This document shows, piece by piece, positions 2,910 through 30,900 of a DNA stretch of 64,000 nucleotides (the stretch's first letter is position 1; every line of letters starts with the position of its first letter). The DNA is from a virus, in IMG/VR virus record IMGVR_UViG_3300021960_000027, positions 32,001 through 96,000 of that record, one strand, 5' to 3'. Position numbers and translations under genes: made by a program. The notes beneath the pieces were generated by a model, which saw nothing but the letters and a program-made list of their open reading frames with translations, was not told where the DNA came from and ran no database searches.

Positions 2910-3489
2910 GCGATTTCAAAATTCATCCCAACCACTATCTCCGTCAATGGCAAGTTCAAAAATCGTTTTTGTTTCTTCAGTCGACCGTGGGTCTTATCTG
3001 GAAAAGAAAAATCGGGTTTCAGTTATCGATGTTGCATCTGGAGCAACGTTAATTGTTCCCCTCAGTCGTTCATCAAGGTTTTTCCCACGGGAGGGTGAGG
3101 TTTGGCTAATTGAGCGGTCAGAAGGAGGATGGCGATTTAATTCGATGGTTGGTGATCGAAGAAATCCAGTTGTTTCTAATTGGCTTCAGACTGGAGATTT
3201 TTTAGAAGAGTCAGGATTGTTGACTCATTCAATATTTGCGGGAAACTCTTCGTTTAACCATCCGCAGTCTAAGTCTGGTGGTTACATCGGAGAGATTAGA
3301 ACTATTTCTTACACAGTTTCTTTACCCCCCGATGGGTGGCTTCTGTGTAATGGTGCCACCTACTACAAGTGGTGGTATCCAGTTTTGTATTCGGTTATCA
3401 ACAACTATTACGGGGTTTCAACCGACGCGACATTTAGCGTTCCGTCCTTTGGTAGTTCAACTGTCAAGTACATCATTTGTGCTTATTAA
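2902..3489 (+). CDS. Baseplate spike-like protein with C-terminal tail-collar domain
   Basis: IGEIR..PPDGWLLCNGATY..YPVLYSVI..YG..TFSVP tail-collar signature; lies between hub and gp25-like gene. Confidence 0.65.
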   Translation: MARRFQNSSQPLSPSMASSKIVFVSSVDRGSYLEKKNRVSVIDVASGATLIVPLSRSSRFFPREGEVWLIERSEGGWRFNSMVGDRRNPVVSNWLQTGDFLEESGLLTHSIFAGNSSFNHPQSKSGGYIGEIRTISYTVSLPPDGWLLCNGATYYKWWYPVLYSVINNYYGVSTDATFSVPSFGSSTVKYIICAY

Positions 3490-3497
3490 GGAGAGAG

Positions 3498-3932
3498 ATG
3501 AAGACGTTTGCTCTTGAATCCGGTGACCTAGTTGTATCTAACGGTTCTTATATGACTGTCTCTGGCGCGCAACGAATGCAACAGCAAATCGGACTCTCTC
3601 TGATGGAGCCGACCGGCATAGATCGATTTCACCCTCAGTGGGGTTCGATTCTTGACCAACTCATTGGTACTTCTATGACATCTGACATTACAGAGCGAGT
3701 AAAAACTGAAGTTTACCGAGTCATAAAAAACATTGCCGCGCTTCAAAACTCGGCAATCCAGCGAAGTGCAACTGTTGGGTCAAAGCCACAAGTAACTCCT
3801 GATGAACTCATCACTGGGGTTACTGGGGTTTCTGTCGAACAAGTCCGTGACGCAATCAACGTAAAAATTTCTCTTTCAACTGCTGGACGAGAAACCGTAA
3901 CTGTCAATACTTCTATTGACGGAGGAATCTGA
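3498..3932 (+). CDS. Baseplate wedge subunit, gp25/GPW-like
   Basis: GDLV..RFHPQWGS..LIG pattern; size; AGGAG RBS; precedes baseplate J. Confidence 0.75.
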   Translation: MKTFALESGDLVVSNGSYMTVSGAQRMQQQIGLSLMEPTGIDRFHPQWGSILDQLIGTSMTSDITERVKTEVYRVIKNIAALQNSAIQRSATVGSKPQVTPDELITGVTGVSVEQVRDAINVKISLSTAGRETVTVNTSIDGGI

Positions 3933-14670: not shown

Positions 14671-14889
14671 GTGGCAAAAAACAATCAGCCATCAATCAAA
14701 AAGGACGTACGGAAAGTCATTCGTCGTGCTGAGGAAAGTGGATGGGTTGTTGAGTACACCCGAAATGGTCACATTAAGTGGGTGGCTCCAGACGGAGTTA
14801 CGATATTGATTTGTCCGTCAACCGGCTCTAGTCGGTCATGGAAGAATCATCTTGCTCGCTTGCGTCGACACGGGATCACAGAAAAATAA
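14671..14889 (+). CDS. hicA: HicA-like (dsRBD-fold) mRNA interferase family protein
   Basis: 72 aa, basic; AEESGWVV..TRNGHIKW..PDG..PST..LRRHG pattern; AGGAGG RBS. Confidence 0.65.
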   Translation: MAKNNQPSIKKDVRKVIRRAEESGWVVEYTRNGHIKWVAPDGVTILICPSTGSSRSWKNHLARLRRHGITEK

Positions 14890-14933
14890 TCTGTGATTTG
14901 TATGGGAAGACATTCCGCGTGGTAATGTCGTCC

Positions 14934-15350
14934 CGTGGTTCTCAACCTCATTGGTACATCACCTTCACTCCGGTGGTCGGGGTTCGCCCGTTATAGCGAC
15001 GTACGGTCGTGGGAGGTCGTTACACCCCACCGAAAGGCTAGTCGTACCTATCAGCCATAACGAGTCGATCACCAGCGTCGGGTTCCAAGGCGTGCCCGTT
15101 CCCCGACACTGATACGAGAACCATGCTGAGTCGACATATACCGGCAACGGATGTAAAACACGGTCATCATTGACTGTGGGGTAAAGCAGGGAAACCTGTG
15201 TGACACATCTCTGGGCTGACGGGAACCCATGCGGAGTTCAGCCCCAGACCCTCTGAGCGCGAAACCAGCCAGAGAAAGATTTATCTTTCTTTGTCGCGTT
15301 CAGGGGGGTCTGGGCACCCCATCGGAGTTCAAGGGTAAGAGATACTGTCA
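14934..15350 (+). ncRNA. Candidate large structured non-coding RNA (class unknown)
   Basis: About 500 bp without a credible ORF; at least 10 nested helices found by eye with G-U pairs and GAAA/GCAA/UUCG tetraloops on + strand. Confidence 0.55.
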
Positions 15351-15404
15351 ATAAGATTCTTTCTACTTCTAAGAGATGTAAGTATTTAAGTCTTTGGAGT
15401 TCTG

Positions 15405-15782
15405 ATGCCTGTTGTTCGTAATTTGGTTCGTAGTGCGTCTGGTGAAACCTATTATCATGCTTCTTTGTATGAATTCCGTCAGGGTGAGATCGTGAAGCCT
15501 GCGTCTCAGGGGTTGAAGGCGAATTGGAACGAGACGAATCCTGAGTATGCGTATGCGATGAAGTCTCTTGATGATGCGTGGCGGTGGGCTGATAAGGGTC
15601 ATCAGAATCATGTGTATTACGATCATCAGGGCGAGTATTTGGCTTGTATGCATTGGCCGATGGTGTTTGAGGTGGTTGCGGTGAATCCTGCGGATGTTGT
15701 GGATGAGGATATGCCGTGGAGTGGTGTGATGTCGAAGTCTGGGTTTCGGGTAGTTCGCCAGATGCCTGATCCTGATTTGTGA
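15405..15782 (+). CDS. Arr-like (rifampin ADP-ribosyltransferase fold) protein
   Basis: YYHAS..F..GEIVKP..YAYA...A..WA..VFEV pattern of H-Y-type ARTs. Confidence 0.5.
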   Translation: MPVVRNLVRSASGETYYHASLYEFRQGEIVKPASQGLKANWNETNPEYAYAMKSLDDAWRWADKGHQNHVYYDHQGEYLACMHWPMVFEVVAVNPADVVDEDMPWSGVMSKSGFRVVRQMPDPDL

Positions 15783-18842: not shown

Positions 18843-18871
18843 TTGCACATAGGGTCTAAGGGGGGTAACAT
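18843..18871 (+). promoter_or_regulatory. SigA-type promoter giving a probable leaderless dinG mRNA
   Basis: TTGCAC-N17-TAACAT, then 7 nt to ATG 18879 with no SD downstream of the -10. Confidence 0.5.
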
Positions 18872-26896: not shown

Positions 26897-27820
26897 ATGT
26901 CAGATTTTGACTTCCGCTCAGGTGCGGTAGCCGCGAAAGAATCATCGGAGAAGAAGTCTCCAAGTGGCTCTGCGAAGACCGAGTATTTCAACCTGAAAGA
27001 TGGTGAAAGCACCATCCTTCGTTTCTTGACCGACGTAGATGAAATCATCACTGTCGATCAGCACACTTTTGTGTCAACTCGCCCTGCTCCATCTGGATAC
27101 ACCGGCAAGTTTCCTCAGGCAATGAATGCCATTTGCCGTCGTGACCCTGCATTCGGTGGAACCTACGCAGATTGTTTTATCTGTGACCACCTTGCAATCG
27201 AAGAAAAGAAGTTCGCGGCAAAGCCCCGTGCATGGGCACTCGCGGCAGTTCGTGAACCAGTTTACGAAAACGGAACTCTCGTTGGTTTGCGCGATGCAGT
27301 GCGTCGTGTTCCAGAAGTTATTGATGGTCGTGAAACAGGTCGGGAGATTGAAGAAAAGGCAGTCGTCATTGTGAACATGGCGTTCCATAACTTCTTCTCC
27401 CATGTCTTTGGGCATGCCAACTCCGCGGCAAACGGTGGAACCTTGCTCAATCGTGACTATGAGATTCGTCGCTCAGGTAGCGGACTGCAAACGTCATACA
27501 CCATTACTGGACTTGACAAGATTACGATGGAAGACGGCAAGATTTATGACTTGCGTGATCCCGACATCATGGCTCGCTACCGTCCATATCCTGACTTGAC
27601 TCAGATTCTTGTTGATCGTTCATCTGATGATTACTATGCACGGTTCTTTGATACCCGTGTGCCTCACCCACAGCAGGGTGCTGGCTCTTCATCTTCATCC
27701 CCCAGTGGTGAGCAAGGAATGCGTTTTGCAGTGAGCGCACCAACCAACGACATGCCTACTATGCCGACGAGTGCATCGGCAGAGGACATCATGTCTCGCG
27801 TAACTGCACGCAATGCTTGA
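26897..27820 (+). CDS. Single-stranded DNA-binding protein (gp32-like)
   Basis: FNLKDGES.ILRFL, H..C..CxxC Zn site, RDYEIRRSGSGLQTSY, low-complexity tail; between primase and polymerase. Confidence 0.7.
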   Translation: MSDFDFRSGAVAAKESSEKKSPSGSAKTEYFNLKDGESTILRFLTDVDEIITVDQHTFVSTRPAPSGYTGKFPQAMNAICRRDPAFGGTYADCFICDHLAIEEKKFAAKPRAWALAAVREPVYENGTLVGLRDAVRRVPEVIDGRETGREIEEKAVVIVNMAFHNFFSHVFGHANSAANGGTLLNRDYEIRRSGSGLQTSYTITGLDKITMEDGKIYDLRDPDIMARYRPYPDLTQILVDRSSDDYYARFFDTRVPHPQQGAGSSSSSPSGEQGMRFAVSAPTNDMPTMPTSASAEDIMSRVTARNA

Positions 27821-27859
27821 TTGAATGAAGGCGGTCATTTAATCAGGCAAAGAACGGTT

Positions 27860-27914
27860 TGCCCAGAGACACAAATCCCCCCCATCGTGTCTCTGGGCAG
27901 ACCAACCAAGGGGG
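27860..27914 (+). promoter_or_regulatory. Hairpin with C7 loop just upstream of dnaE RBS
   Basis: 13-bp perfect stem tgcccagagacac/gtgtctctgggca; loop aaatcccccccatc; GGGGG at 27910-27914. Confidence 0.45.
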
Positions 27915-27918
27915 CGTT

Positions 27919-30900
27919 GTGTATTTTGTAGTTGAGTCATTTTCCGTTGACAGAGTAACCAGTGGTTTACTGTCTGGTGTGCCAGTCCCCTCAGTAATTG
28001 AGGATGCTGATGGTGGCTACAGATGGTTACTTGTACCCGATGGTTTAGTCATTACATCTCATTGGGAAAATGCCTATCGATTGGGTGCGATGGGAGTTTT
28101 GTCTATTTCTGATGGGCAACTTTTCTTTGCAACGACGAATTCTGTTATGCAGTCAAGTGGAGGCTTTTCTTTTTCTGTCCCTTCTTCTGAACTGGTTGCT
28201 GTTGAGTCACTCCCATCTTCTTCCGATTTAGCGTTGTACGAATCTCGCTCTCCGATCATTTCTGAAAGTGGATTTGTTCACCTCCATGCCCATAGCGAAT
28301 TTTCCCCACTAGATGGATTGGCGACAGTTCAAGAAATGGTTGATGAGGCGGTTCGCCACAACCAGTCCGCTATTGCTGTTACCGATCACGGAGTTTGTGC
28401 CGCGCATCCAGAGTTGGCAAAGGTTGCTCGTCGCGCTGGCATCAAGCCGGTGTTTGGAATTGAGGCGAACTTTGTTAACCATCGCAGAGTCAAGGAATCG
28501 GTTGGAGATTATTATCACCTCATTCTTTGGGCGCAAAACGAGCGTGGGCTAAGGAATCTTTGGAGTGCTTCAAGTGAGGCATACAGAGATGGTTTTTACG
28601 GCAGGGCGAGAATGGATTGGGATACTCTTTCTCGCAACAACGATGGGGTTATGTGTTCAACAGCATGCCTGCGTGGTCCGCTTTCTGACATGATTTTGGA
28701 CGGGGATGAAGACGGTGTTCGTGCAAGCCTCTCTCGCCTACAGGCATTGTTCGGGGATCGCCTTTACGTCGAACTTCACACGAATCAGTTGCCACAACAA
28801 AGGGTTGTTAACGAGGCACTGGTGCAGTTGGCGCAGGAGTTTTCTCTTCCCACTATCGCTGTTGCTGACTCTCATTATGCGTGCCAGTCAGACCACAAAG
28901 CCCATAAGGTTTGGATCGCGGCACAGACAAACAAGTCGCTACAAGATGAAGGTGATTTGTTTGCTGGGGATGAGCATTATCACATTTCTTCAGTAGATGA
29001 AATCCGTCAGTCACTGAGTTACTTGCCACAGTCAGTGGTAGATGAATCTATCTTTCAGACATCTGTTGTCGCTGATCTTTGCAACGCTGGGTTAGAGTCT
29101 CGCAAGTCAACTCCTGTCTTTCACCGCAAGGGCGAAGACAGTGGTTCAGATAAAGATGCCAGAGTGCTTCGTCAGATGTGTTTGGACGCTTGGTCAAAAG
29201 TTGCTGATAAGCCGAATCAGGAAGAGTACGTCGAAAGACTGGAAGAAGAACTTGACCTGCTGGTATCAAAAAAATTCTGTGGCTACATCCTTCTTGTTGC
29301 CGACTATTGCCGTTGGTGTAAAGAGAACATGATTCTGATGGGACCGGGGCGTGGTTCTGCCGCGGGTTCCTTGGTTTGCTATCTCACTGGTATTACTGAG
29401 GTTGACCCGATTGATGCGAGGCTTTTGTTTGAGCGGTTTTTGACTCCGGGCAGAACTTCTCTTCCAGACATTGACTCAGACTTTCCAGCATCTAAGAGGG
29501 ATGTAATTACTCAGTACATTGTTGATCGCTGGGGAGAGGATCGTGTTGTACGGGTAGGGACTCATATTCGTCTTGCCAACCGTGGTGTGATGCGCGACCT
29601 TGCCCGTGTACTTAGGGACTCTCTTTCGATTGATTACCGAGATGTTGATGCTGTCTCAAAGATTATTGAAGACGCTGAGTCTGGTACTGCCGGTCTTGGT
29701 TTAAGTTGGGATGAGTTGTGGGGTCAGGTTGGAGATGAGTTGTCTCCATATCAACTTAAGTATCCAGAATGGTTTGAGTACGCAGACAAGTTTGTAGGTC
29801 GATTGAAGTCGTACGGCAAGCACGCGGCTGGGGTTGTAATTGACCCAGAGCGTTCAATTATTGACCGTCTTCCCCTTCGTGGTGGGGAAAGTGAACAACC
29901 AATTACTGAATTTGCGATGGAAGATTTAGAGGAACTTGGGTACGTCAAGTTTGACCTGCTGACTCTTCGTACTCTGGACACAATTCAGGTGTGTTTGGAT
30001 TCAATTCGTGAAGACGAAAAACTTTCGTTAGGTTCACCTAACATTTACGAATGGAACGAAGAATACAACGACCCTCAAGTTTGGGACATGCTGTGTGAGG
30101 GAGAGACGCTTGGCGTTTTTCAAATCGAAACATCTGCTGGCACGAAACTGACAAAGAGGTTCAAGCCACGTTCGATTGATGACCTCTGCGCCATTCTCAC
30201 GTTGGTACGACCCGGACCGATTAGGTCTGGACTAACCGAAACCTACTTGTCTAGGAGAAGTGGCTCTGAACCAGTTCTCTCAATGCACCCACTGTTGGAC
30301 AACGTTTTGGATAAGACGTATCAAACAATGATTTATCAAGAGGACATCATGGCTGTCTGCCGAACTCTTGGTGGTTACACGACCGAAGAGGCAGATGAAG
30401 TACGTTCAATTCTTGGCAAGAAAAAGGTGGACAAGGTCGAATCAGAGGGTCGGCGTTTCATCAGTCGTTGTGTAGAGAATGGCGTTGAGTCAGATATTGC
30501 AATTCGTCTTTGGGATCAAATGCAAGAGTTTGCTCGCTATGCGTTCAACAGATCACACTCATGGTCATACGCTCTTCTTGCTTACTGGACTGCGTGGCTC
30601 AAGTGTCATTATCCAGTTCACTTCAGCGCGGCGGTTTTGTCTACTGTTAAAAAAGAGCGCATTCCACAGTTTGTAGAAATGACTCGCAGAATGGGTTATC
30701 AGGTTCTTCCCCCAGACATCAACGAGTCAAAAGACGGGTTCACAATTAGTGCTGACCGTATGTCGATTAGGTACGGACTTGATTCAGTTAAGAATGTTGG
30801 CTCTTCCGCAATGCAGGCAGTTTTGGTTGGTCAACCTTACGAATCAATGGATGATTTTTTGGAGCGAAAGGGTCGTGCCTGCCACATGGGGCATGTTGAG

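Follow-up and report, generated by a model that had tools for sequence, protein, structure and literature searches.

GOLLD and ROOL are large 'ornate' RNAs that are common in phages and prophages, where they often stand beside tRNA genes. A locus that can be compared with them was analysed here in a window of 64,000 nucleotides (nt), bases 32001-96000 of the IMG/VR record IMGVR_UViG_3300021960_000027, whose total length is 117,937 bases; positions are those of the window unless the genome is named. The carrier is an uncultured tailed phage of 118 kb, sampled in marine, estuarine and sediment environments, and the element in question lies in a 515-nt non-coding gap between a HicA-like gene and an orphan open reading frame (ORF), orf125. 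Like GOLLD and ROOL, the element is several hundred nucleotides long, phage-borne, non-coding, rich in hairpins, conserved in sequence and without an assigned function. Unlike them, it has no covariance-model match and no tRNA genes nearby, and at ~400 nt it is shorter.

Several known large structured RNAs are described as phage-borne and as forming unusual assemblies (bioRxiv 10.1101/2024.12.08.627333), and a comparative-genomics survey presents 10,006 candidate viral structured RNAs, defined as clusters of homologous intergenic regions with covariation (Fremin, Bhatt and Kyrpides 2023, PMC10690425). The survey candidates are matched by the present element in being intergenic, conserved, well-folding and located on an IMG/VR phage contig; unlike them, the element yielded no homologue in IMG/VR.

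The element probably folds into a functional RNA that belongs to no known family. For the more specific reading, that 14934 to ~15335 constitutes a structured non-coding RNA of the + strand belonging to an undescribed family (new in the sense of having no Rfam 15 match), we estimate a probability of roughly 0.4. A conserved, non-coding, G+C-rich and well-folding block does exist at this locus, and its conservation relative to the flanks is the strongest argument for function. The gap and the block are delimited as follows:

14890-15404, + strand: whole non-coding gap of 515 nt, bounded by the HicA-like gene and orf125, with negative codon log-odds in six frames
14948-15332, + strand: conserved core of the element, with ~1% differing sites against 11-17% in the flanking genes (runs X5 and X10)

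Ten public sequencing runs were found to contain the stretch or part of it. Four of them are possibly its source, and the six others, from four studies, contain 13-29% of its words; the sample labels of the runs containing the stretch are marine, estuary, mangrove, sediment and seawater metagenomes. The comparison of variants took in four of those six runs (X5, X8, X9 and X10), with differences counted only at places more than ~31 nt from contig ends and with the uncovered parts of the stretch taken as no evidence of absence. In the mangrove run X5, 4 differences were found in 325 nt of the core versus 17 in 155 nt of orf125 (Fisher P = 4e-6). The X5 stretch 14916-14947 may contain up to 5 unlisted differences, and when all unlisted differences were assigned to the element the counts became 17/489 versus 17/186 (P = 0.005). 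Gene order is unchanged in X5, where a single contig spans the element into orf125 and the loose ends are similar to orf114 and to the beginning of the HicA-like gene. A similar contrast was obtained from X10, a seawater RNA library, on the other side of the block, with 1 difference in 140 nt of the element versus 10 in 59 nt of the HicA-like gene (Fisher P = 2e-5), or 6/202 versus 18/121 for the whole pieces (P = 1e-4). The X8 and X9 pieces showed 100% and ~99% identity, respectively. Differences become frequent again from 15333 on and the 5' edge of the conserved block lies at ~14948, so that the limits of 14934-15350 proposed in an initial annotation, made from the sequence alone, are close to the block at both ends, although the 3' arm drawn there overlaps a promoter-like motif. 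Conservation over ~385 nt of sequence, and not of stems alone, would exceed the needs of a terminator or a leader.

The initial annotation of the locus as non-coding was confirmed. Codon log-odds of the gap range from -0.16 to -0.36 across all six frames, compared with +0.26 +/- 0.10 for real genes; there are 3-8 stops per frame, and none of the + strand ORFs exceeds 53 amino acids (aa). Small protein genes inside the gap were accordingly rejected on their negative coding potential. The G+C content is 0.554 for 14934-15350 and 0.52 for the gap (14890-15404) versus 0.478 for the genome, and a spacer of 515 nt stands out in a genome whose ORFs are otherwise closely packed. The + strand carries 127 of the 134 ORFs in a crude call over the whole genome, a bias that counts in favour of a + strand RNA.

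Folding predictions were made in several sequence contexts, and the main local structures were the following:

14934-15125, + strand: domain 1 as first proposed, made up of the closing helix P1 (14934-14943/15116-15125) and inner helices; P1 probability 0.00-0.84 depending on context
15009-15030, + strand: hairpin gtggg/cccac; pair probability 0.87-0.91 in all four contexts
15141-15150, + strand: hairpin ccg-GCAA-cgg; pair probability 0.73-0.97
15159-15178, + strand: 8-bp hairpin cacggtca-UCAU-tgactgtg; pair probability 0.98-0.99
15187-15198, + strand: hairpin cagg-GAAA-cctg; pair probability 0.92-0.98
15243-15314, + strand: long hairpin of ~30 bp with a 7-nt bulge; pair probability 0.75-0.98

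All helix arms of at least 5 letters quoted in the initial annotation were located where it had placed them, and 9 of its 15 helices had ensemble support in at least some sequence contexts, including cgttat/ataacg, gtacggt/gtcgtac and the 15073/15111 helix. Some details needed correction: cagcgtcggg/cccgacactg contains a C.A mismatch (15076/15108), and three neighbouring helix pairs share a nucleotide. On the + strand the gap folds at -192.4 kcal/mol (z -4.19) and on the - strand at -182.8 kcal/mol (z -3.82), and 14930-15355 reaches z -4.11; in each case 0 of 100 shuffles were as good. With G+C regressed out, the stretch comes 5th among ~840 windows.

The claim that G-U pairs favour the + strand held for the 3' part of the element. 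The three hairpins between the two domains proposed (-23.6 vs -13.0) and domain 2 (-70.8 vs -63.3) are more stable on the + strand, as is the 3' half as a whole, by 7-11 kcal/mol. The long hairpin 15243-15314, with 3 G-U pairs, reaches -46.3 on the + strand versus -36.1 on the - strand, and the hairpin 15159-15178 reaches -10.1 versus -5.2. The variants point in the same direction. Changes in the core fall at 5 places, of which 14948, 14949 and, for the most part, 15092 are predicted to be unpaired, and the other two are C>T changes opposite G (15070 and 15242). Three changes in the 3' flank, A>G at 15398, C>T at 15402 and G>A at 15333, preserve + strand pairing, and a fourth, G>T at 15333, does not. 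The C>T changes at 15070, 15242 and 15402 and the A>G change at 15398 give G-U pairs on the + strand and mismatches on the - strand, and these pairing-preserving changes, as far as sequence variants can tell, lean to a + strand RNA.

No known family accounts for the element. None of the 4227 models of Rfam 15 matched anywhere in the window at gathering score, in agreement with the novelty claimed in the initial annotation, and at E up to 10 in 14800-15500 only three weak matches were obtained, to microRNA, snoRNA and lncRNA models, with 16-23 bits against cut-offs of 47-100; the GOLLD and ROOL models were not matched even at E up to 10. Rfam gave no family match in the rest of the genome either, and no paralogue of the element was found there. 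The reported lack of tRNA and tmRNA hallmarks also stood, with no hit by ARAGORN in the window or in the genome, which by the same program holds no tRNA gene, and no tag-like frame in six translations. A coding piece of a tmRNA was rejected on the latter result. A retron was likewise dropped, as the genome has no reverse transcriptase.

A number of results weigh against a structured RNA. Beyond strain level, no homologue of the element was found in IMG/VR, in JGI metagenome contigs or in cultured phages, and covariation support is consequently lacking. A blastn search of the gap in 'distant' mode against 50,697 phage records returned nothing. Scans with four loop and junction patterns gave 26, 7 and 0 loci in IMG/VR and 5 in JGI metagenome contigs, none of which extended beyond the pattern by nhmmer or blastn. 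Searches of IMG/VR for relatives through the HicA-like protein, orf125, orf469 and the SNF2 helicase gave 0 loci; a helicase alignment (A1) gave one IMG/VR locus, L002, at 48% identity. Other helicase relatives (P0002-P0007) are 55-66% identical and lie on contigs of 5-124 kb, and cultured phages offered no close relative, the phage helicase being at most 28% identical to theirs by tblastn. Blastn, nhmmer, a genome search and a local alignment (P = 0.48) showed no similarity between the L002 locus and the element. Past the SNF2 helicase gene, L002 has a 507-nt non-coding gap (L002:13251-13757) without an Rfam match and unalignable to the element, and this non-homologous gap folds with z -4.44.

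The folding evidence is itself qualified by the background of this genome. Twenty-two random 420-nt windows gave a mean z of -1.0 (sd 1.6), with 2 of the 22 at -3.7 or below, and two other 420-nt windows out-fold the element, genome 10361-10780 (z -6.5) and window 27781-28200 (z -5.3), the latter at the start of the DnaE gene. The fold thus beats its shuffles (z about -4, 0 of 100), yet only mildly exceeds the genome's own background, in which it is not exceptional. The argument of the initial annotation from GNRA and UUCG loops was not supported, with 2 GNRA loops on stems of at least 3 bp against 0.71 expected (P = 0.16), as many in 21% of genome windows, and a UUCG hairpin whose pair probability is at most 0.05. 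GNRA loops picked by eye and fold z-scores are therefore poor evidence in this genome. The full fold first drawn lies 13 kcal/mol above the minimum for 14934-15350 (-152.3 vs -165.7), and the global fold shifts with the length folded. The two-domain architecture was not upheld in the form proposed, ensemble support being absent for 6 of the 15 helices. Apart from the UUCG hairpin, these are the two stems that close domain 2 (pair probability 0.00-0.27) and ggtggtcg/cgatcacc, ccGAAAgg and gggctga/tcagccc, at no more than 0.05 each. P1 competes with a rival 10-bp helix, 14967-14976/15319-15328, which has a probability of 0.49-0.99 in two contexts. As modelled, the long-range pairing pattern is not fixed by thermodynamics.

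Recent recombination of the block between strains would yield the same pattern of conservation. Combined with the broad folding background, the unenriched GNRA loops, the dependence of the fold on context and the failure to find homologues, this points to a reading without any RNA-level function, in which a G+C-rich spacer owes its near-identity to mosaicism and its hairpins to chance; the variable neighbourhood and the orphan status of orf125 fit it as well. We regard it as unlikely. X5 and X10 carry different private changes, and both combine the conserved block with a diverged flank on the side that is visible, while the X8 and X9 pieces, at 99-100% identity, come from other studies. Neither the G+C content, 8 points above that of the genome, nor the unusual length of the spacer is what such a reading would lead one to expect.

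Direct signs of an independent transcript were also sparse. The TGG-preceded box reported in the initial annotation was present, and it is listed here as a candidate weak promoter of the element:

14923-14928, + strand: TAATGT, -10-like box with TGG before it, read by eye

The box is absent from the output of a promoter scan, which reported no promoter of the element's own, and a terminator scan found no terminator-like site in or beside the element, although canonical terminator-like hairpins are present elsewhere in the genome; no T run follows the long hairpin 15243-15314. One metatranscriptome library contributed two short contigs, one of 162 nt that covers 14770-14890, in the HicA-like gene, and one of 202 nt on 14943-15144, which carry no information on strand, ends or level and may be of DNA origin. 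Contigs were moreover placed only at similarities of at least 80%, so that coverage says little about expression.

The strand evidence is not uniform either. Domain 1 alone is more stable on the - strand (-79.3, versus -66.9 on the + strand), and the pairing changes number only four, all of them C>T or A>G, the commonest substitutions in any case. Since both strands fold about equally well and conservation would suit a DNA site just as much, a DNA-level element was considered: a regulatory region with protein-binding sites, an origin of replication or a region for primer RNA, situated before the replication genes at 18843 (helicase), 23830 (DnaB), 25065 (primase) and 27859 (DnaE), 3.5-13 kb beyond the element. 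The element contains a direct copy of ACTGTCAAT at 15344-15352 and an inverted copy matching at 8 of 9 positions at 15169-15177 (pair I16, within the hairpin 15159-15178), which would fit a DNA-level site; the 507-nt gap past the L002 helicase, for its part, holds CTGTCAAT twice (13500 and 13572) and one ATTGACA, and within L002 CTGTCAAT is confined to that gap. As an exact 9-mer, ACTGTCAAT has 4 copies in the genome, at window positions 3900, 15344, 42796 and 63954, and 3 of the 4 precede genes starting with ATGCCT (Met-Pro). Nevertheless, we hold a DNA-level element to be distinctly unlikely. Binding sites need not keep 385 nt at ~99% identity, and the variants at paired positions produce G-U pairs on the + strand alone. 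An origin at the element is unlikely because the cumulative G-C skew has no turning point there, the block is G+C-rich and not A+T-rich, and neither tandem repeats nor iterons were found in 14890-15404, which holds only two-copy dispersed repeats of 73-80% identity. The cumulative skew rises nearly throughout the genome with local dips only, the local change of skew is a property of the neighbouring genes, and an origin call based on skew was rejected.

The 3' edge of the element adjoins signals that appear to belong to orf125:

15345-15373, + strand: late-promoter-like bipartite motif CTGTC-N20-TAAG, assessed by its genome-wide pattern count against shuffles
15324-15403, + strand: predicted helix 15324-15333/15393-15403 covering the Shine-Dalgarno (SD) sequence GGAG of orf125 (15396-15399); partner probabilities up to 0.85-0.92 in context 14800-15500

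Across the genome, CTGTC-N20-22-TAAG has 9 copies on the + strand and none on the - strand, whereas 200 block shuffles averaged 1.33 copies and never exceeded 5. Every copy stands shortly before a gene start. Copies in the window lie at 3461, 15345, 15785 and 40334, and others lie past the window end at 65235, 65277 and 75276. The pattern is a candidate for a phage-specific late promoter, although no phage sigma factor of its own was found in the genome; a search for a T7-type RNA polymerase was uninformative, as it matched no control genome either. The presence of one copy at 15345-15373 implies that the 3' arm of the domain-2 closing stem, which overlaps it and thereby speaks against the drawn fold, is part of the promoter-like signal of orf125, and that the element proper stops before ~15340.

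In the T4 genes e, soc and I-TevI, read-through transcripts hide the ribosome-binding site of a late gene in a hairpin. The present arrangement resembles them in that the 5' arm of the helix covering the orf125 SD contains or precedes the late-promoter-like motif, but differs in that only the last ~80 nt are concerned and that the predicted contrast depends on the start site. This likeness underlies a reading of the stretch as a cis-acting intercistronic mRNA structure, the structured end of an early or middle transcript, in which the hairpin 15243-15314 would serve as an RNase III-type site or a 3' protective hairpin and in which occlusion of the SD would silence orf125 in read-through transcripts, while transcripts from the late motif would be translatable. 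Read-through from the HicA-like gene into orf125 is likely, as no terminator separates the two. The SD helix reaches a probability of 0.92, and 3 of the 4 variant changes in it preserve pairing. The predicted probability of an unpaired SD is 0.11-0.21 when the transcript begins no later than 15362 and 0.65 when it begins at 15375, and the long near-perfect hairpin would have the size of a substrate for a double-strand-specific RNase. However, the SD is also paired (unpaired 0.11-0.12) in short transcripts starting at 15345-15362, through the local partner 15364-15368, and the contrast between long and short transcripts therefore hinges on the start site. An SD mechanism requires ~80 nt and not a 385-nt block at ~99% identity, and other copies of the promoter motif are not preceded by such a structured block. 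We consider a purely cis-acting role somewhat unlikely.

The genes on either side of the gap were characterised as follows:

14671-14889, + strand: HicA-like gene of 72 aa, context outside the RNA; PHROG 2089, E 2.6e-13
15405-15782, + strand: orf125, downstream gene, context; codon log-odds +0.26

The proximity of the element to the HicA-like gene raises the question of an RNA partner for its product. Type III toxin-antitoxin systems have RNA antitoxins (ToxI-like) that consist of tandem direct repeats, are processed by the toxin and stand before the toxin gene. As in these systems, a non-coding RNA would lie beside a small toxin-like gene without a protein antitoxin; unlike them, the element has no tandem repeats, follows the gene and is associated with a different toxin family. 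A role in place of the absent HicB, as RNA antitoxin or regulator, or a role as a double-stranded-RNA-like ligand of the protein's fold, which is of the double-stranded-RNA-binding-domain type, would agree with the position of the element directly after the gene, with its long double-stranded hairpin and with the absence of hicB next to hicA, no HicB family member having been found in the genome (PF15919 and PF05534, E up to 0.1). Yet this is very improbable. The HicA-like protein scores 20.2 bits against Pfam HicA_toxin, under the cut-off of 27, although it is 33-43% identical to phage genes annotated as 'HicA-like toxin'. Its gene evolves fast, being 15% different in X10 and below 80% similarity or unassembled in X5, whereas the RNA hardly changes. 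HicA-like genes were examined in three cultured phages; in all three they are solitary, and the gaps that trail them are at most 83 nt, so that the link of the element to the HicA-like gene looks accidental. A HicA-RNA module was rejected on these cultured phages and on the lack of tandem repeats.

On the downstream side, orf125 has no Pfam or PHROG match, and a search of 5.8 billion protein clusters, by word index and over lengths of 68-219 only, matched nothing but orf125 itself. It varies by ~11% between strains, first and second codon positions included. It is followed by the 469-aa orf469 and then by genes for a helicase, DnaB, primase, DnaE and RecA; tail genes, baseplate genes and an SNF2 helicase are encoded upstream of the element.

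The record is classed as complete with direct terminal repeats. The terminal repeat is only 127 bases long (genome 1-127 and 117811-117937) and looks like an overlap left by the assembly of a genome that is circular or circularly permuted, and not like a genuine long terminal repeat. A further small RNA gene of this phage counts in favour of a structured RNA at the present locus. It is an 82-nt mini-tmRNA at genome 7012-7093 on the + strand (L034:7012-7093), 24.9 kb before the window start, with a tRNA-like domain that includes an acceptor stem, G3-U70 and a T arm, and with the mRNA-like part replaced by 13 nt. Its Rfam tmRNA score is 46.9 bits, with the cut-off at 47 (E 3e-17 when 1 kb was searched), and it is missed by ARAGORN. 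Its 3' end recurs in 8 contigs (L038-L045) of metagenome-assembled genomes (MAGs) from several phyla, with 26-28 identical letters only; these last letters equal the 3' ends of tmRNA genes in three Bacteroidales MAGs and those of tRNA-Ala genes in Phycisphaerales and Myxococcota MAGs. The match is too short and too widespread for a host call, and the strong Shine-Dalgarno sites and TTGACA/TAnnnT-like promoters of the phage would argue against a Bacteroidota host.

Returning to the favoured reading of the element as a structured RNA, the RNA would be transcribed with, or just after, a small non-late cassette formed by orf114 and the HicA-like gene, with no convincing terminator on either side. 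Its predicted stable hairpins (15009-15030, 15141-15150, 15159-15178, 15187-15198 and 15243-15314) would be joined by longer-range helices, and the motif at 15345-15373, if it acts as a promoter, would set the 3' limit and start the next unit. Such a molecule may work as a stand-alone stable RNA, either a scaffold or decoy for a protein of the phage or its host, or an assembly made of RNA alone, and not as the leader of a single gene. It is possible, and is put forward tentatively, that the element founds a new class of ~400-nt phage RNAs with a defined tertiary fold, expressed early and acting in trans on a host or phage factor, in a lineage of uncultured marine/estuarine phages that also carries a tag-less mini-tmRNA.

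On the present evidence the element is a good candidate only, among many thousands in viral metagenomes (PMC10690425). Large structured RNAs of unknown function are rare, and one that is nearly fixed within a hypervariable region would be a tractable structural target. A new large RNA, if real, would provide a lead to an RNA-based step of infection, and, should the broader proposal be true, it would suggest that this phage manipulates its host through several RNAs.

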